Of a stretch of DNA of 64,000 nucleotides, positions 49,714 to 61,198 are shown one piece after another. Below the pieces are notes generated by a model, which saw nothing but the letters and a program-made list of their open reading frames with translations, made no database searches and was not told the origin of the DNA. Positions within the stretch are counted from its first letter, which is position 1. Each line of letters starts with the position of its first letter. Where the stretch lies: contig JAVZJD010000002.1 of assembly GCA_038870975.1 (NCBI GenBank), forward strand, positions 1 through 64,000. The letters run 5' to 3'. This stretch comes from Candidatus Bathyarchaeia archaeon (GTDB lineage: Archaea; Thermoproteota; CALKCG01; B24). The translations under genes were made by a program, and so were the position numbers.

Positions 49714-50496
49714 ATGGTGATTAAAATTGTAGGTAAAGAAGAGTTGAAAAAGATTCTCAGAGAGTTGAAGTCAGAGGAAGATTTAGCTAGAGTTGAAGAG
49801 GAAGCACGTCGGTTTTTACGAGATATAGACCCCGAAACATTATCCATTATTGAGCAAGAGCTCTTAGAGGAAGGCTTAAACTTCGAAGATTTAAGGAGGC
49901 TTTGCGAAATACACTTGAAAGCAATCACGATTAAAAGAGAAGAACCTGAAATTGGAGAAGAGCATCCAATAAGCATACTTAAGGCTGAACATGAAATCAT
50001 ATTGGACAACCTCAAGATATTAGAAGAGATAGTTAGTAAAGTAAAATCCGACATAGGCTTAGAGCAATTGAATGAAGAGTTTGAGAAACTAGAGCCAGTA
50101 GTAGCACTACTGCTTGAAGCTGAAAGTCACCATCAGAGGGAGGAGGAAGCACTATTCCCACGTTTAGAGAGGCAGGGAATTGCTGGACCGCCAAATATTA
50201 TGAGGATAGAACATGAAGACTTAAGAGCTAAGAAGAAGACTCTTAAAAGACTTTTAGACGAGCGTGCCACATTAGACCGTAACTACTTAACTGACAATGT
50301 GTATGAGTTAGGCAATTATATCGCTTCAACCCTAAGAGACCATATATACAAAGAAAACAACATACTCTATCCACTATCTCTAACAACAATACCTGAAAAT
50401 GAGTGGCGTAAAATCAAAGAGGAATTTGACGTTATTGGATACTGTTGCTTTACCCCAGGAATTAAAGCCTTAGGAGAGCACCGCCATGAAGTATGA
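49714..50496 (+). CDS. DUF438 + hemerythrin-like domain protein
   Basis: EQELL..G...RLCEIH; HPI...EH, HHQREEEALFP, EHE, HIYKENNILYP, IGYC. Confidence 0.85.
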   Translation: MVIKIVGKEELKKILRELKSEEDLARVEEEARRFLRDIDPETLSIIEQELLEEGLNFEDLRRLCEIHLKAITIKREEPEIGEEHPISILKAEHEIILDNLKILEEIVSKVKSDIGLEQLNEEFEKLEPVVALLLEAESHHQREEEALFPRLERQGIAGPPNIMRIEHEDLRAKKKTLKRLLDERATLDRNYLTDNVYELGNYIASTLRDHIYKENNILYPLSLTTIPENEWRKIKEEFDVIGYCCFTPGIKALGEHRHEV

Positions 50497-50731
50497 AAAA
50501 CAGTCTACTGTGGGCGATTATCTAATTGGTGATGGAATATTCACCGTGAGTAAAGAGGGAAATAGGGTAATTATTAAACTATATGCATGGTCGAAAAGGA
50601 GAGGAAAAGAGATAATTCGTCTACTCGATAGTAGAAGCGACACAGAGATACACATACATGACAGAGGATACATCTACGGAGAGAATAGTGAAGATAGAGC
50701 TGAAATAGCACAATCCTTCGCCAATACATGA
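50486..50731 (+). CDS. Hypothetical protein
   Basis: 81 aa, overlaps upstream stop, GGAG SD. Confidence 0.5.
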   Translation: MKYEKQSTVGDYLIGDGIFTVSKEGNRVIIKLYAWSKRRGKEIIRLLDSRSDTEIHIHDRGYIYGENSEDRAEIAQSFANT

Positions 50732-50744
50732 AGCAAATAGTTTT

Positions 50745-51380
50745 TCACGAATATTCGAAGTAGTATTCTAAGAGCCGTCTTATCCCCCTCCTCATTCTCT
50801 CAGAAAGCGTTGAAGAGCTGATTCCAAGCTTACGTGAAATATCCGATATAGTCGATTTTTTGGGATAATTGAAGAAACCCATTTCTAGAGCCATTCGTAA
50901 AGCCATCTCCTGCTTCTCAGTTAAGACTAAACCCCTCCCTCTAAATCTCTCCACTCCTAGTATTTTTGGCTCAAAACCAAGTTCCTCTAAAGTTGAAACT
51001 ATATCTTGCACTATTCTTGTGTTGGGAGAAACAAATATGTAAACAAGCCTACTACTTTCCACACTCCACGCTGCCGTCAGAAAAGCACCCTTTGAAACAA
51101 TAGTGTTACATACGTCGCATCCATCGGATTCAAACCATGCGATAGATTCCTTCCCTAACTTAATGCTACTCCGCATCTTCACATTACTACGTTTTAGAAT
51201 ATTAACGGATTGTTTTACCGGTATTCTCACTAGATGCCTAGTAATACCGCGCGGTAAACGCCTAATGTCAACCACTCTAAACTGGTGAATCCCTAAATCT
51301 TTAAATAGTTTCAATACTTTACACCGTTCATTTGCTATTTCAATAGAAATACGGTAGGGTAATTTTTCTCTATAAGCCAT
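50745..51380 (-). CDS. Bacterio-opsin-activator-type (HTH_10) transcriptional regulator
   Basis: LTEKQ...ALEMGFFNYPK...LGIS.STLSE.MRRG; GCDVC. Confidence 0.88.
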   Translation of the reverse strand: MAYREKLPYRISIEIANERCKVLKLFKDLGIHQFRVVDIRRLPRGITRHLVRIPVKQSVNILKRSNVKMRSSIKLGKESIAWFESDGCDVCNTIVSKGAFLTAAWSVESSRLVYIFVSPNTRIVQDIVSTLEELGFEPKILGVERFRGRGLVLTEKQEMALRMALEMGFFNYPKKSTISDISRKLGISSSTLSERMRRGIRRLLEYYFEYS

Positions 51381-51472
51381 TTTTCAACCTCCCTCTAAAT
51401 ACTAACACCTCTTTCGATTTTCTTCACATCGTGCTTCTACTTAAAAAATAGGTGGATTAAAATTCTGAAGAA

Positions 51473-52816
51473 ATGTTTACATACCAAATCCAGCATTTCT
51501 ATAGGTGTCGTCACATGTCAAACGCTATCGATAGAGGTAAGATTGAGGCTTTAAAGAGTATGTTGCTTAGTCTGCATAAGGGTGAATCTATAGAAGAGTT
51601 GAAGCGTAAGTTTAAGGGCGTCCTTGAAACTATTTCTCCCATTGAAATATCTCTGGTTGAGCAGGAGCTTGTTAGGGAAGGCGTATCCATCTCAGAGATA
51701 CTTAGGCTATGTGATTTACACGTAGAGCTCATCAGGGATACGTTACGCTCTAGTTTACTTATGGATGTGCCTAAAGGGCATCCCGTAAGCCTTATTTCTA
51801 GGGAAAATGAACATATTACTAAGCTTGCTGAAGCTTTAAACGTTTATGCTGGAGCTCTGAGTAAAGCCAGCTCAGGAGAAGCCGAAAGCCATCTAAAAGC
51901 TATCAGCAACATATTAGCCGAGCTGAGAAAATCTAGATTGCATTATAGAAAGATTCAGATGTTAATATTTCCATATCTTGAGAGGAGGGGTATAACAGCT
52001 ATTCCAAGGGTTTTATGGGGCAGAGAAGACCAGATAATTGTTAAACTTAGGGAACTATCCACGCTTGTGGAGAAAGAGTTAACTCATCCTAAAGAATACC
52101 CCAATATAGCTGAAAAAGCAATGGAGGTTTCTAGGGAGATATCTGACCTCATTTTCAGGGAGGAGAGGATTTTACTACCAGCAGTATGGATTCTTCTATC
52201 TGAGGGGGAGTGGGTGGCTATACATGAAGCCGCTAAAGATATAGGGTATCTAATACCCATCGACGTAGAGTGGGCATCTAGAGCTAAGCCACTACTACCG
52301 TATGAAGTTAACGGGGTCGTTACACGAGAGCAGGTTGAAAGTCTTCCACAAGAGTTTAAATTCGCTGCTTTAGCCCCGGACACGTACGAAGTTAGGTCTG
52401 AAGAGGATCTAGAGTTTGAAACAGGCTTCCTGAGTAAAGATGAAGTTGAAGCCATATTTAGGCATCTACCAATCGAGGTGACGTATGCCGATGTCAATGA
52501 TAGGGTTACATTCTTCTCCCAAAGCATCTTTAGAAAGGGATTCGCTAGAACAAAAACAATTATCGGCAGGAGACTTGGATATTGCCATCCACCTAGACTT
52601 GAACATTTCGTTAAAAGCAACGTTGACGATCTTAAAGCTGGAAAATCGGATTATAAGGAGTATTGGACTAAGCTTGGAGATAGAACAATTAGGGTCATCA
52701 TAGCCGCAGTTAGAGATAAAGATGGGAAGTATCTTGGGACTCTAGAGATTGTTGAAGACCTAACCGAAATAGTGAATAATCCAGATGAGATTAAGGGGAA
52801 GATAGTTACCCTATAA
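51473..52816 (+). CDS. DUF438 + hemerythrin-like + PAS protein
   Basis: EQELV.EG...LCDLH, GHPV...EN, HYRK..LIFPYLE, LPIEVTYAD, CHPP. Confidence 0.85.
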   Translation: MFTYQIQHFYRCRHMSNAIDRGKIEALKSMLLSLHKGESIEELKRKFKGVLETISPIEISLVEQELVREGVSISEILRLCDLHVELIRDTLRSSLLMDVPKGHPVSLISRENEHITKLAEALNVYAGALSKASSGEAESHLKAISNILAELRKSRLHYRKIQMLIFPYLERRGITAIPRVLWGREDQIIVKLRELSTLVEKELTHPKEYPNIAEKAMEVSREISDLIFREERILLPAVWILLSEGEWVAIHEAAKDIGYLIPIDVEWASRAKPLLPYEVNGVVTREQVESLPQEFKFAALAPDTYEVRSEEDLEFETGFLSKDEVEAIFRHLPIEVTYADVNDRVTFFSQSIFRKGFARTKTIIGRRLGYCHPPRLEHFVKSNVDDLKAGKSDYKEYWTKLGDRTIRVIIAAVRDKDGKYLGTLEIVEDLTEIVNNPDEIKGKIVTL

Positions 52817-52958
52817 ATACGATCTCAGTATTTGGGTTTAGCCATAGGTATGCAATTCCACCCATCAAGAGGAAATCGTCAAAGTAGCTTATATAGGTAG
52901 GACTAACGCGGAGAGAAGCCACCTAGAAAGGCCGTGAAATAAGGGAATTAAAAATCTT

Positions 52959-53138
52959 CTACTGGTAGTTGGTAGAGTCATACATTCGAACAGCATGACT
53001 TGTAATCTCTAAAGAACAGGAATAATACTTAGAGCAGAACTCCTCACATTTTTCAGCCCAAGTCTCCTCTCTATAGGCGAGACTACACTCTTCACAAATG
53101 TATAAGGACTCACCTTTCCTCTCTACCCTCTTCACCAT
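52959..53138 (-). CDS. 59-aa Cys-rich zinc-finger-like protein (absent from ORF track)
   Basis: MVKRVERKGESLYICEECSLAYREETWAEKCEEFCSKYYSCSLEITSHAV...; GGAGG SD; directly downstream of acr3. Confidence 0.8.
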   Translation of the reverse strand: MVKRVERKGESLYICEECSLAYREETWAEKCEEFCSKYYSCSLEITSHAVRMYDSTNYQ

Positions 53139-53161
53139 GATAGTTAGACGCCTCCTACCAA

Positions 53162-54184
53162 TTAAGAATCTACGCTAGAGAAATATTTTCTGGTTTTTAA
53201 GGCTATTTTCACGAATGTCAGCATAGACGGGACCTCCCATAATGGGCCGACTACTGTTGCTAAGGCTGCCTCTGAACTAGCACCGAAAACGACTGTAGCT
53301 GTTGCTATGGCAACCTCAAATTGAGTACCTGAGCTTATAAAAGCGATGGTTGAGGCATCTTTATAATTGAATTTTAAGAGCCAAGGTATAATGTAGAAAA
53401 GGGAGGACATAATAAAGAAATGTAGTAGCAATGGTATTGAAACCAAGCCTACTAAAAGAGGCTGATCAGCAATCGCTCCACCCTTTAAGGAGAAAAGCAT
53501 TATAACAGTAATTAGTAAAGCTAGAGCCGCAGTATTCCCTATAAGTGGGCGAAATTTGTTATCAAACCACTCTTCCCCCTTTCTTGAGACGAGAATTTTT
53601 CGCGACATTTGCCCTGTAATTAATGGTAGACCGACAAACAGAATCACACTCTTTGTAATTAGTGTTATTGGAACTGGTATTCCTCCGATTCTGAGGTAGA
53701 AAGCTGCAAGAGGTGCATAAAGTATTAGAGTCGATAAAGCATTTATCGCGGTTATCACGATACCTTTAGCTACGTCGCCCTGCGCCAGTAGAATCCAGAA
53801 TAAAACCATCCCGGTGCATGGCGCTATTCCAAGCAGAATAACACCAGACGCGTATCCTGGATAGCTACTTAAGAATAAGTGTGCCAGTAGAGCCATGAGC
53901 GCTGGGGCGACAGCCCAATTACCTATTAACGTAAGGATTGTGGGTTTGGGAGACTTAGCAGCTTTCACTATCTCCTCAAACTTTATGTTCACCATTGTTG
54001 GATACATTAGGAGGAAGAGACATACCCCCATGGGAATCGATATATCCCAAACCTGAAGAGACCCAATCCATAAACCTAACTCTGGAAAGAACCTACCTAA
54101 TAGAAAGCCGGCAATCATGCTAAGAACAACCCACAGCGTAAGGTATTTTTCAAATGAACCTAAAACTGTTCGACTTTCAGACAT
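53162..54184 (-). CDS. acr3: ACR3-family arsenite efflux transporter
   Basis: FEKYLTLWV, MYP, GNW, APCTGMV, FEVAIA, VVGPLWEVP. Confidence 0.93.
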   Translation of the reverse strand: MSESRTVLGSFEKYLTLWVVLSMIAGFLLGRFFPELGLWIGSLQVWDISIPMGVCLFLLMYPTMVNIKFEEIVKAAKSPKPTILTLIGNWAVAPALMALLAHLFLSSYPGYASGVILLGIAPCTGMVLFWILLAQGDVAKGIVITAINALSTLILYAPLAAFYLRIGGIPVPITLITKSVILFVGLPLITGQMSRKILVSRKGEEWFDNKFRPLIGNTAALALLITVIMLFSLKGGAIADQPLLVGLVSIPLLLHFFIMSSLFYIIPWLLKFNYKDASTIAFISSGTQFEVAIATATVVFGASSEAALATVVGPLWEVPSMLTFVKIALKTRKYFSSVDS

Positions 54185-54211
54185 GCTTGCCTCCTCTACT
54201 GACCATCCGTT

Positions 54212-55447
54212 TTAATGGGTCTCCTTAACTTTATCCGCAAGCAATCTGCCAATCTCTACAACCCGTTTAAGAATCTCTTCAGTAGGTGGACCGTTCACCT
54301 CTAACACATCGACAACCTCAACCTTAAACTGTCCAAGCAACTCTTGCATATGTTTCACCGCACTCCCACCCCAGCCGTAAGAGCTTAAGAATACGGCGTA
54401 CTTTGTCGGTGGACGTAAAACCCTCATGAGATATGCAACATAAACAGCCAACGGATGAGCACCGCCTAAAACAGTTGAACCACCTAAAACAACAGCTCTA
54501 GAGTCTACAAGGTCTTTAATAAGGTCTCCAACATCGGTCACCGTTAAATTGTGAAGAACCACTTCAATACCTTCCCCAGCGAGTACCTCAGCCATCTGCT
54601 CAGCCATATGCTTAGTACTATCCCACATACTCACATAAATTATCGACACCTTTCGCTTAGTTTCACCATTCACCCACTTCCTATAAGCATCTAGAATGAC
54701 CTCAGGCTTCCTATGAATAGGTCCGTGGCTCGGAGCTATCACTTTAACGTCTAAGTCCTTCAACTTTTCCAACCCCCTCTGTGCCATGGCTCTAAAAGGC
54801 ATCATTATCTCACCCCAATACTTTTGAGCATGTATGAGTAGATCTTCAACATCATCGCCATAGATTCCCTCAGCTAAGTGAGAGCCGAAGAAATCGCATG
54901 AAAAAAGTATTCCATCCTCTTCAACGTAGGTAAACATCGTTTCGGGCCAGTGAAGCATAGGCGCCTCTATAAAACGTAGAGTTTTCCCACCGAGGCTTAA
55001 CCTCTCTTGATCGGCAACCATCTTCATCCTCTCCTCTGAAACATTGTAAAAAATTCGAGCCATTTTTACCCCTCTACTTGTCGCTACAAGCTTAGCCTTC
55101 GTAGCGACCTTCATCAGATATGGTATAGCACCCGCATGATCGGGCTCAGCATGATTCATCACAATATATTCTATTTCCCCGGGATCTACTAGACTACGGA
55201 TCTTTCTTTCAAGCTCTCGCTCGAAACCTGGGTTCACCGTATCTATTAACGCATTCTTCTCTTCCCCCAGCACAAGATAGGCATTATAAGACGTTCCTCT
55301 TGGAAGAGGAATTAAAGCATCGAAAAGCCTACGGTTCCAGTCTTTTACACCAACCCAGTAGACGTTTCTTGAAATCCTAAAAACGTTCCCCTCAATCGTA
55401 TAATCATCACCACATACTGTAGTGGATGAAAACAGGTATTTAAGCAT
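54212..55447 (-). CDS. fprA: Flavodiiron protein (true start probably near 55396-55399)
   Basis: GTSYNAY, HAEPDH, HWPE, SCDFFG, PSHG, flavodoxin SMWDST, SYGWGG. Confidence 0.93.
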   Translation of the reverse strand: MLKYLFSSTTVCGDDYTIEGNVFRISRNVYWVGVKDWNRRLFDALIPLPRGTSYNAYLVLGEEKNALIDTVNPGFERELERKIRSLVDPGEIEYIVMNHAEPDHAGAIPYLMKVATKAKLVATSRGVKMARIFYNVSEERMKMVADQERLSLGGKTLRFIEAPMLHWPETMFTYVEEDGILFSCDFFGSHLAEGIYGDDVEDLLIHAQKYWGEIMMPFRAMAQRGLEKLKDLDVKVIAPSHGPIHRKPEVILDAYRKWVNGETKRKVSIIYVSMWDSTKHMAEQMAEVLAGEGIEVVLHNLTVTDVGDLIKDLVDSRAVVLGGSTVLGGAHPLAVYVAYLMRVLRPPTKYAVFLSSYGWGGSAVKHMQELLGQFKVEVVDVLEVNGPPTEEILKRVVEIGRLLADKVKETH

Positions 55448-55778
55448 GATTTAATACATGTAGATGAAGAGTTAAAGGAAGTAATCATAGATGGATAGGA
55501 GATAACATTTTTCCCTAGATTTTTCTGGTTTTCAAGGCTTTATTCGTCGGTTTAAAGTTTATCGAGAAATTGAAACTACTCCTTGATGGCATCGGAGTTG
55601 ACGTGCATAATTGGCTAGTGTCTTTCACCCAGCAGATTTTTTAAAGACTCTGGGGCAAGTAAACATTTGTTTCATCATAGAGGTGAAGTAGAATAAACCT
55701 CACCTGTTTTCAGTTGATGAAAGCATATTTCTGAAGATTATGGGCTTAGCAGTACATTCTCTTTGGGCGTTTGACCAG

Positions 55779-56300
55779 TTAAACGGTAGACCTTTTAATC
55801 TTAGGAAGAGTTTCAATAGTAAACTTGGCGATTTGTTCTTTTGTAAGTCCGTACTCCCCATTCAACTTACTTATTTTACCCTGTTTAAACATAGATGCAA
55901 GAGTATTATAGACTGTTTTCAAGGCTTTATTCGTTGTTTTAGCGAGCTCAGACGGTGTCAAAGACTCTTTACTCAGTTTTCCAAGTCTAAAACCTAAGTA
56001 GGCTCCTACTAAGCTCAGCATTATAGCGTCTTCAGCGGATAAATCCGTTCTCTTAAGAACTACTCCATTATCTGTTACTTGGAGAAATTCAGAACATTCT
56101 CTGATAAGCGTGTCAAAGTTGGGCTCGAAGACTATTTTCGAAATCGCCTCATAAGACGGGTATACTTTAGAAAGCCATTCAAAGAAAGCCCTTAAAACAA
56201 CGTCAGACTCGCCTTTGAAAGTTGCTTCTAAAGAGCCTATTTTAACATTCAACTCTATACTACTCAACAAGTTCACCTTTAAGCCTAGGTGCAACTTCAC
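55779..56300 (-). CDS. Winged-helix protein, paralogue 1
   Basis: N-terminal VKIGSLEATFKG hairpin-helix; C-terminal LTPSEL..KTVYNTL..GKI...EYGLT. Confidence 0.7.
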   Translation of the reverse strand: MKLHLGLKVNLLSSIELNVKIGSLEATFKGESDVVLRAFFEWLSKVYPSYEAISKIVFEPNFDTLIRECSEFLQVTDNGVVLKRTDLSAEDAIMLSLVGAYLGFRLGKLSKESLTPSELAKTTNKALKTVYNTLASMFKQGKISKLNGEYGLTKEQIAKFTIETLPKIKRSTV

Positions 56301-56757
56301 TTATGAAGTACTTCAACCCCTTCGAAGTAATCCTATATTCGCCTCTTTCCACCTTCTCGACAAGATAACCATTCTGAAGCTCACTAAGTCTAGCGCTGAT
56401 AGAACTTTTAGATTTACCCAATCTTCCAGAGATCTCTTCAAGTGAAAGTGAAGCCTTATCGGATTTGCCGAATAGGTAGGCGAGATATTTAACGATCAAA
56501 ACTAGTAGACAGCCTTCGAAAATAGTCAACTTCTTCATATCGGCTAAAACAGTGGGTTCAGGATGTACTGTAACTAAATCCTTTAAACCCTTGGAGACCT
56601 CCTCTAAATCCAAGCTTAGAGTCAAATTTTTCACAAGGCTGAAAGTCGGATAGACGTCTGATATGAATTTGATAAGACTTCTCAAAACCTGCTCGGCATC
56701 CCCTGAAAACTCCAACTCTCCACCCTGGAATGAGACTTTAACTTTAACCTCGCTCAT
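56260..56757 (-). CDS. Winged-helix protein, paralogue 2
   Basis: VKVSFQGGELEFSG; LSLEEI..ISARLSEL..LVEK..RGEYRIT.KG. Confidence 0.75.
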   Translation of the reverse strand: MSEVKVKVSFQGGELEFSGDAEQVLRSLIKFISDVYPTFSLVKNLTLSLDLEEVSKGLKDLVTVHPEPTVLADMKKLTIFEGCLLVLIVKYLAYLFGKSDKASLSLEEISGRLGKSKSSISARLSELQNGYLVEKVERGEYRITSKGLKYFISEVAPRLKGELVE

Positions 56758-57302
56758 AACATTCCTCCCCTAATCTTTGGGATAATCATCTTCTCAACCC
56801 ACATTTGACCTTGAGCTGAAAGCTTCCACACGACATCCTTCGGGTCAGGCTTGAAAACTCTACCCGATTCAGCCATCTCCTTAAGTCTAGCTGACACGTT
56901 TGAAACCTTAAAGCCCGAATTCTGCAAAAGTAGAGCTATAGTTTTAGGGTCAGACTTCTGCTCTTTAAATGCATAAAGTAGCAAACCTATAGCTTCATAC
57001 TGGCTTAACTTAGCCTTCTCCGAAGCCACTATCAAAGGACCGTCAACGCTCCACTCAATCAAACCCTCTAATAGGTTAGATGTCTGTGGAGCCTTTTCAG
57101 CAGCCTCGAAATGCTTGAACGTAGAAGGCTGAAAATCCTCTACAGTCAAACTACTTTTAAGTAACTCCTTAAAACCCATTGAAGAAGCTTCTTCTAAAGC
57201 CGTTTTAACAAGGCTGAGCTTTTCACGGAGTTCTTCAACCGTTGAAAACTCAAACTCTAGAGAGCCAAACCAAGACCGGAAGATCGCTTTTACTCCGCTC
57301 AT
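56754..57302 (-). CDS. Winged-helix protein, paralogue 3
   Basis: FGSLEFEFS; VSARLKEM..GRV...WKLS.QG. Confidence 0.7.
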   Translation of the reverse strand: MSGVKAIFRSWFGSLEFEFSTVEELREKLSLVKTALEEASSMGFKELLKSSLTVEDFQPSTFKHFEAAEKAPQTSNLLEGLIEWSVDGPLIVASEKAKLSQYEAIGLLLYAFKEQKSDPKTIALLLQNSGFKVSNVSARLKEMAESGRVFKPDPKDVVWKLSAQGQMWVEKMIIPKIRGGML

Positions 57303-57526
57303 ATCTGTAGAAAAGATTAGATAAACCAGTATATAAATCTATTCAAAAAATCCTTTAAAATTCCCATATTTAAAAACACTTACATAACCTTTTTACCATA
57401 ATTTTCACGGATAAAAAAGGCGTGGTAAAATATTTAGGAATAAACTAGGAAAATTTTATTTAAATTCTACATGGTTTTATCCATAAAACAGTTAATATTT
57501 CCTCCATTGAATACTTAAGTGAAAAC
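57303..57526. promoter_or_regulatory. AT-rich spacer with inverted repeats
   Basis: TTTTACCA (57391-57398) / TGGTAAAA (57423-57430); GTTTTAT-CC-ATAAAAC (57474-57489). Confidence 0.5.
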
Positions 57527-57931
57527 TCACAAACTTGGAGGCTTCTTCTGAATATACACGTATTTACCCTTTCTACCGCCTCTATACAGTATATCGCTTC
57601 TAACTAAATCAGCTAAAGTATGCGCAACAGCAGTCCTATCGTAGTGGAAGCCACGTTTACTGAGCTCTTCATGAACATCGCTGAGCGTCCTCCCAGTACT
57701 AAACCATCCGGTCCTCCAAAGATTGAGTAGAACACCCCTGCAAGTTGATGGAGTGGGCTCTTTAACAATTTCAAACTCAGGCTTACTAAGCTCTCTATCC
57801 AGTAGAGAGACGTTTTGAAATGCACTTAGAAATTCTTCAACAGTCTTCTTAAGCTGGTCTTCTCTACACTCAATCTCTGCTTCGACTCCTTGATACTTTA
57901 ACTTTATCCTGACTTTTCTATCGGATTCCAT
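57527..57931 (-). CDS. Winged-helix protein, paralogue 4
   Basis: IKLKYQGVEAEIEC; GWF..RTLSDV.EEL..GF.Y....VAHTL.DLV...L.R.G..GKY.Y; ATG 57931 after GTGG SD. Confidence 0.75.
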   Translation of the reverse strand: MESDRKVRIKLKYQGVEAEIECREDQLKKTVEEFLSAFQNVSLLDRELSKPEFEIVKEPTPSTCRGVLLNLWRTGWFSTGRTLSDVHEELSKRGFHYDRTAVAHTLADLVRSDILYRGGRKGKYVYIQKKPPSL

Positions 57932-57969
57932 ATTCAACCACTTTGTTGATTGAACAATCAACAACAACA

Positions 57970-57977
57970 CTTATAAG
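57970..57977. promoter_or_regulatory. Palindromic TATA-like box CTTATAAG between divergent genes
   Basis: About 30-40 nt from both start codons (57931 on -, 58009 on +). Confidence 0.5.
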
Positions 57978-58008
57978 GGAGTACATCTACATATAGAGTG
58001 GTGATTGC

Positions 58009-59157
58009 ATGGATATAAACATTTCCCCCTCAACAAATCACTCTAAGGATGACCCTCAAAGTCTCCCATGGCTTAAAGAAATGCCCTACGTAAAACTCTA
58101 CCAAGAACTCGTCGACACAGGTACAGAGCTACTTCTCAATAGGCTTAAAACATATAGAAAAGAAGTTTACAAACTGGTAGATGAAGTCAAAAACAGGTTA
58201 AAAATATATAAAGCTGTTTACGACAAAGATGGACCTGCTTCTTCTAGAATAATCGGAGTAGATGCAGGGAGAAACGGAACAGAGTACAAATTCGCATACA
58301 TACCCCTATATGGAGCTATTGCGGTTCTAGTTGAAAACTGGGAGATTGTAGATGAACCACTGTGTGTAACAGGACCACCGGACGTATGGGCTTCAGAATT
58401 AGACCCAGATAAGCGTGAAAGTCTTCTACACATGGCTTTGGAATACCACGTAGCTACTAGAGCCGTAGAAAAGTGGAAACCAGACTATCTTCTACTTGAT
58501 GGGGGGATAGTACTCAACCCTAAACTCTACCCAGATTTCCAAGTTTCACCACAGTATGAAGGAGACTTCTACTTCACAGTCATTACTGTCCTCGAACTTT
58601 TAAATACCTGTAGGAAACTCCACGTTCCAGTTTTAGGCTTCGTTAAGCGTACACATATGAACTTCTACTCTTCATTCATGAGGAACAGTCAGATTAGAGA
58701 CTCAACACTGATGAACTTCATACTTAAAGAAGGCGAATACTCTGAACCCTTCAAAGTTGAAAACATAGTGGCTGAATCCTACAGAACTGTGGCTGAAAGC
58801 CTAAAATACGATAAAAGCCTTCCAGTCATATACTCAAGTTACATAAAGACGAGTTCAGCCCCGTTCAGAGTGGAGGTTCCAATGTTCTGTTTAAACAAAC
58901 TCGGAGAATTGATGTCCATCGTCTACACTATGGCAGGCTTCGACGGTATTCCATATCCTATACATGAAGCAGATAGGCTTTCAAGGATAACTAGACCAAC
59001 TTCGAACATACACTCTTTAGTACTCTACTCTAAAGCCTTAGAACTCGTCGAAAGCGGAGAAATGGAGCTTAAAGACCTAGACCTCCTAATGCTCGAGTAT
59101 GGTGAAAGCTGGACGTTAAACGGCAATCTTGAAGAACTTAGAGGTGGCGACGTTTGA
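58009..59157 (+). CDS. NurA-family nuclease
   Basis: IIGVDAG, LLLDGG, GFVKR, FRVEVP, GIPYPIHEAD. Confidence 0.85.
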   Translation: MDINISPSTNHSKDDPQSLPWLKEMPYVKLYQELVDTGTELLLNRLKTYRKEVYKLVDEVKNRLKIYKAVYDKDGPASSRIIGVDAGRNGTEYKFAYIPLYGAIAVLVENWEIVDEPLCVTGPPDVWASELDPDKRESLLHMALEYHVATRAVEKWKPDYLLLDGGIVLNPKLYPDFQVSPQYEGDFYFTVITVLELLNTCRKLHVPVLGFVKRTHMNFYSSFMRNSQIRDSTLMNFILKEGEYSEPFKVENIVAESYRTVAESLKYDKSLPVIYSSYIKTSSAPFRVEVPMFCLNKLGELMSIVYTMAGFDGIPYPIHEADRLSRITRPTSNIHSLVLYSKALELVESGEMELKDLDLLMLEYGESWTLNGNLEELRGGDV

Positions 59158-60698
59158 AACAGATAGGCTACATACTGTCAGGTTGCGACCAAAGTAAAAT
59201 ATCTTTCGTAGTCATGGAGGATACCAGAGTCTACGTAAACAACTACTACTTCATAAACCATCCTTCAAGCTCAGCGGGAGAATTCAACCCAGTTTTACTG
59301 AGAGTCTATAAGATAACACCTTATAACCCTGAAATGACGATAGGAAGCTTCGGACCTATAGCTGGTAAAAAAGGTGAAAAAGCATACTACGGTAAAAAAC
59401 TCGAATATCTAGTAGCTTGGGCTGAAGTCTTAGGTTACATATCTTGGGATGGCAAATGGAGAAGACTCGAATGTAGTCCCAATACTTGGGACTCAATCTA
59501 CGAACCCACATACGAAGAACTAGAAGGATTCTTCATAAAACTCTCAAGCAAAAGCTTAACGGACAGAACAGACTTCCCAATAGCCATAGGCAGACACAGG
59601 GGTTTAAACATACCATTCCACCTAGATTTAAACGCCATAGCCAAAGGACATATTTTTGTCGCTGGAATGACTCGAAGCGGCAAGAGTACTTTTGTCTTAA
59701 ACCTTATAGCTAGAGCTCTTGAAAACGATTTAAAGCCTAGATTTATAATATTTGATAGAAGGTGCGAGTATTCCCTCCTGTCAAAATATGGAGCCACAGT
59801 ACTCCCATACCTCAGCTTCGTACCTAAAACCGAGTTGATCTCTCCAAGCCTTATAGTGTCTAGGCTTGGCTTAGATCCGAATAAGGCTGAAGGGAAGCTT
59901 CTATGTGAAGCTTTAAACTCCATGAGAGCTGACGGCTCCGATTTAACTACTAAAAACGTACTAAGAAGATGCGTAGAACTCTCCCCATACTTGGTTTCAA
60001 GAGGCAGGGATTCAATTCTATCTAAGATTAGATGGATTCTTGAGAAGCGCGGAGACACAGTATTCACGGAGGAGCATAAGCCTTTAAACATCTTAGAAGT
60101 GCTTTACGATAAACCAGCTGTAATCGTAGACTTCTCAGTCGATGCCAACATTGAAGACCAACAGCTTACCGCTAAATACTTGATACGCGAGGTTGTAAAC
60201 CACGCTATTAAGTGTAGAGCTACTGGAGATTTTGCCACAATATTTGTAATAGAAGAAGCACAGTACTTCGTACCTGAGAGAGGACTTAAAATAGAGGTTG
60301 GAAACCCTGAGAAAACAGGAGTAGATAAACAACTAATAGAAGCAATAAGTCAAGCTGGAGGATACAACGTAGGCTTTATAATAGTTACACAGAGACCTGC
60401 TTACATTTCAAAGTCAATAATATCACAGTGTAATACGATAGCGGCCTTCAGGCTTATGGCTGGCAACGACCAAGAAGCAATCATAAAATACTCTGAATAC
60501 GGAAGTGAAAGAATGAGCGACTACCTACCTGGACTGGCGGATCATGAAGCCCTCATATGGGGTATGGCGTCGCCAGTACCATTCCCAGTCACAGTAGAGA
60601 TAGATGTTAAGGACTATCCGTCTAAAACAGGAGTGACGGCTAAAGTATCATGGGAGAGGATGAACCTTAAAACATCAAACCTTAAAATCCAACATTGA
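59154..60698 (+). CDS. HerA/FtsK-family ATPase with N-terminal HAS-like barrel
   Basis: IGYI N-terminus, HIFVAGMTRSGKS, IFDRRCEY, VIEEAQ, VTQRP, SQCNT; 4-nt overlap with the NurA gene. Confidence 0.9.
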   Translation: MKQIGYILSGCDQSKISFVVMEDTRVYVNNYYFINHPSSSAGEFNPVLLRVYKITPYNPEMTIGSFGPIAGKKGEKAYYGKKLEYLVAWAEVLGYISWDGKWRRLECSPNTWDSIYEPTYEELEGFFIKLSSKSLTDRTDFPIAIGRHRGLNIPFHLDLNAIAKGHIFVAGMTRSGKSTFVLNLIARALENDLKPRFIIFDRRCEYSLLSKYGATVLPYLSFVPKTELISPSLIVSRLGLDPNKAEGKLLCEALNSMRADGSDLTTKNVLRRCVELSPYLVSRGRDSILSKIRWILEKRGDTVFTEEHKPLNILEVLYDKPAVIVDFSVDANIEDQQLTAKYLIREVVNHAIKCRATGDFATIFVIEEAQYFVPERGLKIEVGNPEKTGVDKQLIEAISQAGGYNVGFIIVTQRPAYISKSIISQCNTIAAFRLMAGNDQEAIIKYSEYGSERMSDYLPGLADHEALIWGMASPVPFPVTVEIDVKDYPSKTGVTAKVSWERMNLKTSNLKIQH

Positions 60699-60824: not shown

Positions 60825-61198
60825 GTCTTTATATTTTCCATTCAAAAGAAAATTCACCTGAGGAAGCTTGAAGAGGCCCGAAAAGAGATGGTGGAAGATT
60901 CAGGCATAAGCCTCGAAGACCTCATTGAAGAGATAGGCTGACAATAAATGTTTCAAGTAATCGTATCTCAAAGAGCCAGAAACTCCCTGAGCACTACAAA
61001 AGAAGGATTATTGAGCTACTCTTAATTTTTCGTGAAAATCCGGTTCCAGCCGAATATTATGACGTAAAAAAGCTTAAAGGATGCGCAGATATTTATAGAG
61101 TTAGAATCGGCGATATTCGAGTGATCTACGAAATATTATGGGACCTTAATATGGTTCATGTATTACTAGTTGAATGGAGAGAAAGAGCCTACCCTTAA
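60825..61198 (+). pseudogene. Decayed antitoxin-RelE toxin pair
   Basis: Startless acidic ORF ending ISLEDLIEEIG* (60941); toxin ATG 60948 frameshifts before KLPEHY...VKKLKG..IYRVRIGDIRVIY...RERAY. Confidence 0.8.

Follow-up and report, generated by a model that had tools for sequence, protein, structure and literature searches.

Is a nuclease–motor gene pair that stands apart from the repair operon of an archaeon, and that faces a set of small DNA-binding proteins, a system of its own, and what would these proteins do in it? The question is raised by a six-gene locus in a stretch of 64,000 nucleotides (the window in the following) of contig JAVZJD010000002.1 from a Candidatus Bathyarchaeia archaeon (assembly GCA_038870975.1). 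In Archaea, HerA–NurA is regarded as the minimal machine for end resection, in cooperation with Mre11–Rad50. In the locus, nurA and herA are divergent to four genes for winged helix-turn-helix (wHTH) proteins, here named W1 to W4. A preliminary description of this DNA had listed the six open reading frames (ORFs), quoted an N-terminal motif for each W protein, pointed out a divergent gap of 77 bp with a palindromic TATA-like box and noted that mre11 and rad50 are missing. All of this is borne out: the six ORFs are real genes with confirmed coordinates and strands (Table 1), all four motifs are present, the gap comprises positions 57932-58008, and neither mre11 nor rad50 was found in the window.

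The reading we favour, and hold to be probable by a modest measure, is that of a regulated second NurA–HerA system for DNA-end processing, in which W4 is the operator-binding regulator and W1–W3 are functionally tied, paralogous DNA binders. The pair, separate from the repair operon linked to Mre11–Rad50, would probably, by homology, form a complex of a HerA ring and a NurA dimer that threads and degrades DNA ends. We infer that W4, as a dimeric winged-helix protein, binds a 22-bp palindrome and thereby represses its own gene as well as nurA-herA. W3, W2 and W1 would act in the same pathway, either as co-regulators meeting W4 via a common N-terminal domain or as DNA-binding accessory subunits in contact with the nuclease–motor.

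That the pair is a second one follows from the rest of the genome. A canonical operon nurA-herA-mre11-rad50 lies on the same contig at about 120-126.6 kb, roughly 60 kb from the module (E values of 1e-102 for Rad50, 5e-84 for Mre11 and 2e-68 for HerA). The separate operon supposed in the preliminary description is therefore present, and the pair in the window is not the only canonical repair copy of this genome.

The catalytic motifs of both enzymes are intact. NurA scores 65.2 bits against Pfam PF09376 (cut-off 21) over profile positions 3-254, and when 32 NurA sequences from clade A, clade B (both described below) and the canonical group were aligned, the residues D85, E145 and D164 were invariant; by their position they would be the metal ligands. 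A phmmer search of NurA against the PDB gave no meaningful match. HerA reaches 47.8 bits with Pfam PF01935 (DUF87, cut-off 23.2), the Walker A motif GMTRSGKS (171-178) and the Walker B motif VIEE (365-368) are complete, and its C-terminal half aligns with solved HerA chains including 4d2i. The NCBIfam equivalogs of the repair proteins are missed by a wide distance (helicase_HerA 47.7 versus 970, NurA_Sulf 21.9 versus 400). Several orthologues of this HerA carry inteins with Intein_splicing and LAGLIDADG domains, i.e. those at L044:6133-9288 (genome G002) and L042:6594-10793 (G013) and those of G005, G010, G015 and G016. One intein sits in the Walker A loop, near residue 173, and G013 has a second near residue 420; the copy in the window is intein-free.

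Across relatives the locus is best followed through W4. Anchored on this gene, 80 loci, nearly all of them labelled Bathyarchaeia, were collected with flanks of 10 kb. W4 stands back-to-back with NurA and HerA in 60 of the 62 loci that have at least 2.8 kb of upstream sequence; the two loci without a divergent pair are due to a truncated contig and to a miss in ORF calling, respectively. Of 58 loci with 4 kb or more of downstream sequence, 42 have other W genes within 6 kb of W4. The most frequent layout is HerA-NurA divergent from W4, followed by an operon W4p-W3-W12 on the opposite strand, where W12 denotes the family of W1 and W2. Each of the 16 relatives sampled from the order of the window's archaeon has HerA of the window type, referred to as clade A, as do a few further families. 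A search at the level of the class returned eight genomes, which were of this same order. W4 is divergent to nurA-herA in all same-order relatives for which flanks were fetched, with W3-W2-W1 adjoining in most; the records of the close relatives are titled as Bathyarchaeia or Bathyarchaeota metagenome-assembled genomes. In a sample of 401 genomes of the phylum, the W12 family is present in 187 and W4 in 118, the latter nearly always as a single copy.

We take the module for a vertically inherited chromosomal unit across Bathyarchaeia-labelled archaea; it is not lineage-specific. The conserved six-gene unit that had been proposed holds across the group, although the wHTH family is spread far more widely than this NurA–HerA clade. 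Linkage of the wHTH genes to this clade was seen throughout the order and in three to four other lineages; however, linkage is a property of the W set, which goes with either of two non-canonical NurA–HerA clades, depending on the one present at this spot in a given genome, and clade A also occurs unlinked (G056, G020).

The role of W4 is suggested by the divergent promoter region. Read from the W4 side, the gap consists of 11 nt, the perfect palindrome TTGTTGATTGaaCAATCAACAA, CAACA, the box cttataag, 22 nt, GGTGAT and 3 nt before the ATG of nurA. The palindrome is the sole copy in the genome of 1.85 Mb, and the closest other site differs from it at 4 positions. By archaeal promoter geometry it spans the expected start site of W4 and the side of the nurA promoter that carries the transcription factor B recognition element (BRE), as would be expected for a dimeric, site-specific protein shutting both promoters. 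In 20 sampled loci a TTTATATA or CTTAAATA box stands at the position of the TATA box. Related palindromes with outer TTG...CAA occupy the same place in other lineages, e.g. TTGCGCAT-N7-ATGCGCAA directly before CTTAAATA, and the layout of palindrome plus TATA box is retained in the sampled loci of clade A and clade B. G401, G402 and G405 likewise each hold a single copy of the exact clade-B operator, in every case at the module locus. Conserved TGGTGATTG blocks near nurA had been considered as further operators and were rejected, being a Shine-Dalgarno-like sequence together with the first nurA codons.

Table 1 Features of the six-gene locus (positions in the window)
Feature	Position	Strand	Remarks
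W1	55779-56300	-	longest ORF 173 aa (amino acids); beta-hairpin/helix domain at the N-terminus, winged helix at the C-terminus
W2	56260-56757	-	165 aa; nearest paralogue W1
W3	56754-57302	-	182 aa; leads the W3-W2-W1 operon; lineage-specific insert at about residues 40-75
TATA box tttatata	57330-57337	-	lies 27 nt ahead of the W3 ATG; does not vary among six orthologous intergenic regions
Inverted repeat ATGG-N6-CCAT	57471-57484		precedes the W3 operon; conserved in two genera
W4	57527-57931	-	134 aa, ATG start; best conserved W member; divergent to nurA
Palindrome TTGTTGATTGaaCAATCAACAA	57943-57964		22 bp, perfect, 10+2+10; putative operator between TATA box and W4 ATG
TATA-like box cttataag	57970-57977		palindromic; common to both divergent promoters
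GGTGAT	58000-58005	+	Shine-Dalgarno-like; 3 nt before the nurA ATG; read from the sequence
nurA	58009-59157	+	382 aa; NurA-family nuclease, non-canonical clade A
herA	59154-60698	+	514 aa; HerA-family ATPase/translocase, clade A

Since this palindrome beside the TATA box is unique in the genome, and since other lineages have a related one in the same position, W4 most likely serves as a dedicated regulator that binds the operator of the divergent promoter. The preliminary description had cast the wHTH proteins as marking DNA for the translocase–nuclease. For W4 the unique palindrome next to the TATA box points instead to a local transcription regulator, and not, or not only, to a targeting subunit. 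The module resembles in this respect the MarR/PadR/AspA regulators that act at palindromic operators of divergent promoters, as represented by BldR (3f3x), AF1382 (2qvo), SSO2273 (2x4h) and AspA (5k5o); they are alike in the C-terminal fold (Z 11-12, for W2), the divergent genes and a palindrome beside the core promoter. However, the W proteins differ from them by Pfam scores below threshold, by an extra N-terminal domain of about 75 residues and by numbering four paralogues, in place of a single homodimeric regulator.

The relationship among the four proteins is graded. W1 and W2 match in BLASTP with an E value of 4e-14 over 160 residues, i.e. over their full length, and W3 aligns with the W2 family over its full length with an hhalign probability of 99.5% (E 3e-22); W1, W2 and W3 are certainly paralogues by sequence. 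For W4 against the W2 family the hhalign probability is 57% (E 1e-4), and both are co-linear over 117 columns with the same order of domains. W4 is therefore likely a distant paralogue with the same layout, and the four related wHTH proteins of the earlier account stand with this gradation. In its own genome W1 scores 199 bits with the W12 profile. Judged from the start positions of orthologues, W1 probably begins at the TTG at 56267, which gives 162 aa and still overlaps the stop codon of W2; W2 and W3, as well as nurA and herA, overlap by 4 nt. A 27-nt direct repeat (93% identical) is found at 55915-55941 inside W1 and at 55528-55554 in the non-coding gap of 330 bp downstream of it. Because of this repeat the gap was searched for a decayed W gene, and none was detected there.

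An AlphaFold2 model of W2 (83 sequences, predicted local distance difference test score 86.5) shows a beta-hairpin at residues 4-19, three helices, a small hairpin at 62-70 and a winged helix at 79-161. In a fold search that covered residues of about 71-165, the winged helix matched BldR, AF1382, MarR and PadR proteins and AspA with Z 11-12; for the BldR, AF1382 and MarR chains Z was 11.5-12.1, with root-mean-square deviations of 1.6-4.5 over 77-85 residues. The resemblance to MarR/PadR/AspA concerns the C-terminal domain. Foldseek with a first W2 model against the PDB had given weak MarR-type matches (E about 1e-3). None of the W proteins passes a Pfam gathering threshold, and W3 and W4 have no Pfam match at all. 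The best wHTH scores are 17.2 for W2 (HTH_24, threshold 21.9) and 18.4 for W1 (HVO_A0261_N, threshold 35); matches of W2 to Csa3/CARF models are confined to the wHTH part. The N-terminal 75 residues or so, the beta-hairpin/helix domain, have no family assignment. A profile of this domain alone found 205 representatives in 1.84 billion proteins, nearly all of them W-type proteins of 160-175 aa. Relatives of W4 form at least 573 clusters annotated as hypothetical protein only, and nearly all named ones carry the label Bathyarchaeota or Bathyarchaeia. The recognition helix of W4 carries the motif HYDRTAVAHxLxDLVR.

Some relatives of W12 are fused to other domains. In P0174 (L191:322-1929) a Ser/Thr protein kinase domain is joined to two consecutive W12 bodies without the N-terminal hairpin; the gene lies on a single 2-kb contig, and an artefact of assembly or gene calling is possible. 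P0187 (L190:3559-4689) and P0227 (L192:2247-3356) consist of an extra N-terminal domain of about 195 aa and a complete W12. The extra domain had no match in a Pfam search; it contains a PDG...YELK motif, seen by eye, which could be PD-(D/E)xK-like. P0187 sits in an operon with a ResIII/ERCC3-type helicase, and P0227 within a cluster of more W-like genes.

A different role for the family, in line with the preliminary description, is that W1–W4 form one hetero-oligomeric DNA-recognition complex that recruits or loads NurA–HerA at certain DNA, be it ends, forks or DNA that is foreign or marked, and are thus subunits more than regulators. We consider this rather unlikely. An N-terminal domain common to all four and almost confined to W-type proteins would fit such a complex, as would the co-directional, partly overlapping operons that tie W genes directly to NurA–HerA in four lineages. 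The rare fusions of P0174, with its two W12 bodies, and P0187, beside the ERCC3-type helicase, give a hint of cooperation at the protein level; however, P0174 and P0187 are single representatives on short contigs. In addition, relatives of W1–W3 are frequently unlinked to NurA–HerA, and a genome-unique operator in a promoter is better explained by regulation. A broader version gets from us the same low degree of belief: a W1–W4 hetero-oligomer held together by its private N-domain would load or license NurA–HerA on recognising a particular structure or site in DNA, with W4 acting as autoregulator as well. The W set would then be an old platform re-paired with different NurA–HerA clades and perhaps with the ERCC3-type helicase.

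The regulated second system, as favoured above, has to be set against several observations that speak against it. In 16 of the 58 loci with sufficient flank, relatives of W1–W3 are not near W4; the other W genes are located away from nurA-herA in G011 and G014, on another contig in both, and in G056, about 50 kb from W4; and family f10 has W12 with no match to W4. Taken together, these cases mean that the tie of W1–W3 to NurA–HerA is looser than that of W4. Furthermore, three or four paralogues exceed the needs of a simple repressor. Finally, the recognition helix of W4 is nearly invariant and the operator half-sites vary by lineage (TTGATTG versus TTGCGCA), so that another protein could be the operator binder.

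From the looser tie one may also suppose that W1–W3 are independent chromatin or transcription factors which came to lie near W4 by tandem duplication, W4 alone being concerned with NurA–HerA. This is doubtful in our view, and slightly more so than a targeting complex. W12 is more widespread than W4 and far more so than HerA clade A, and in several genomes the W operon lies on a different contig or at a distance above 6 kb. The W3 operon is also preceded by a TATA box of its own and by an inverted repeat that differs from the palindrome. However, the linkage recurs across differing gene orders and orientations, including arrays of W operon, NurA and HerA without a divergent W4, and this recurrence in varied arrangements is hard to explain by inertia alone. 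The spacing of the TATA box to the W3 ATG implies that the transcript of the W3 operon is near-leaderless. The inverted repeat upstream, which reads ATGGATAAAACCAT and ATGGAAAAATCCAT on the coding strand in two genera, is possibly a second operator. ATGG(N)AAAA-like motifs are repeated within this intergenic region.

A defence function against viruses or plasmids, with the HerA ATPase and a nuclease effector and with the wHTH proteins as sensors or regulators, was among the roles first envisaged for the locus; we now regard it as quite improbable. The best profile matches of HerA are indeed anti-phage models, i.e. NCBIfam HerA_antiphage (72 bits), PADLOC HerA (100 bits) and mad8 (73 bits), the PADLOC matches being partial. 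The closest solved chains by sequence are titled ATP-binding protein, DNA helicase or HerA, and we take them to belong to complexes of defence systems. NurA–HerA sequences also diverge fast, one clade has displaced another, and a decayed RelE/ParE gene lies just downstream of herA. However, all of these scores are far under the cut-offs of their families (800 for the NCBIfam model). No Sir2, DUF4297, methylase or cas gene was found among the neighbours, and no spaced direct repeats of a CRISPR array in 45-64 kb of the window. Within the window, the module is flanked by genes for hemerythrin/DUF438, HTH_10, Acr3-type, flavodiiron, GFO/IDH oxidoreductase and MFS proteins, and clade-B loci by NUDIX, DUF523-like and gatDE genes. 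With such housekeeping flanks, a single-copy W4 and HerA orthologues that carry inteins, the module does not look like a mobile defence island; W4 is distributed across the group in housekeeping synteny, and the HerA subclades in the tree follow the family groupings of the genomes. The bacterial anti-phage systems Sir2-HerA and DUF4297-HerA (PMC11472057, PMC11514289) and bacterial NurA–HerA (PMC9960219) share with the module a HerA-family ATPase combined with a nuclease or other effector, and the anti-phage systems give the best profile and PDB sequence matches of HerA. In contrast to them, the effector of the module is NurA, the unit is chromosomal and vertically inherited in a housekeeping context, and it bears no island signature.

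How a single W set came to stand before two different enzyme pairs is a further part of the question. The HerA tree contains three groups, namely canonical, clade A and clade B, with long branches and an unsure deep order. At most W4-anchored loci the pair is of clade B (Pfam there gives 45 bits for DUF87 and 34 bits for NurA). That clade B is simply the canonical pair was rejected, since G401 and G402, two clade-B genomes, keep nurA-herA-mre11-rad50 elsewhere and the HerA tree separates the clades. In the window's own genome (completeness 92.9%) no clade-B pair was found. In G056 and G020, W4 is divergent to a clade-B pair, and a clade-A pair lies in addition among housekeeping genes; as clade A is thus also unlinked to W genes in two genomes, it probably replaced the commoner clade B in the window's lineage. 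Most simply, clade A would be a paralogue family of its own which took over the W4-linked position in this order, with promoter and operator retained through the swap. Two clade-A loci (L034, L036) still have the TTGCGCAT...ATGCACAA type of operator of clade-B lineages. In G042 (L039:1949-9221) a co-directional array of eight genes, W3-W12-W12-W4p-NurB-HerB-NurA(A)-HerA(A), holds both non-canonical clades in tandem behind one W operon and may be an intermediate in the swap; G182, G063 and G126 have a co-directional W3-W12-W12-W4p-NurA-HerA. Just upstream of the unlinked clade-A pair of G056 (L038:5854-8515) there is an extra HerA-like gene (DUF87, 61 bits), whose partner of 390 aa matches the NurA profile weakly. 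Some of these genomes may have four NurA–HerA-like pairs.

The locus was at first said not to correspond to a described system, and no paper on it was found in the literature searched. The full texts on canonical, bacterial and anti-phage HerA and a 2026 review of NurA make no mention of wHTH partners or of Bathyarchaeia. The canonical HerA–NurA of Sulfolobus, Pyrococcus and Thermococcus, acting with Mre11–Rad50 (PMC3326311, PMC5715905, PMC12977600), is alike in domains, translational coupling, catalytic acidic residues and Walker motifs, and the mechanics of ring plus dimer are probably alike, too. However, the module has no mre11 or rad50, forms a separate clade in the HerA tree, scores far below the equivalog cut-offs of NCBIfam, and has dedicated wHTH partners and an operator, which are unreported for the canonical system. 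The nearest precedent is found in the Thermoproteales, which carry three or more nurA-herA pairs, one of them the CRISPR-associated nurA-csm6-herA (Bernick et al. 2012; PMC3396285); there, too, several vertically inherited pairs exist per genome, and only one is tied to recombination repair. In contrast to nurA-csm6-herA, the module has no csm6, cas gene or CRISPR array, nurA and herA overlap directly, and its partners belong to a wHTH family not yet described.

In an uncultured group of Archaea that is large and abundant, a second NurA–HerA pair, and in some genomes a third, is kept under an operator of its own. If the W proteins regulate or direct the nuclease–motor, this would be an unstudied pathway of DNA processing or damage response. 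The 22-bp operator, the four small proteins and the two enzymes are reagents that allow in vitro study without cultivation of the host. Furthermore, the apparent swap of NurA–HerA clades behind the same regulator and promoter offers a clean case of paralogue displacement.

Two features of the surroundings may be added. The RelE/ParE-type toxin remnant downstream of herA (60929-61198, plus strand; ...YRVRIGDIRVIYEI...VHVLLVEWRERAY) is frame-broken, its N-terminal 25 codons lying in a different frame at 60948-61025. Upstream of W1, the region 49714-55447 encodes two DUF438-hemerythrin proteins, one of them with a PAS domain, an HTH_10 regulator, an SBF/Acr3-type transporter and a flavodiiron-type protein.

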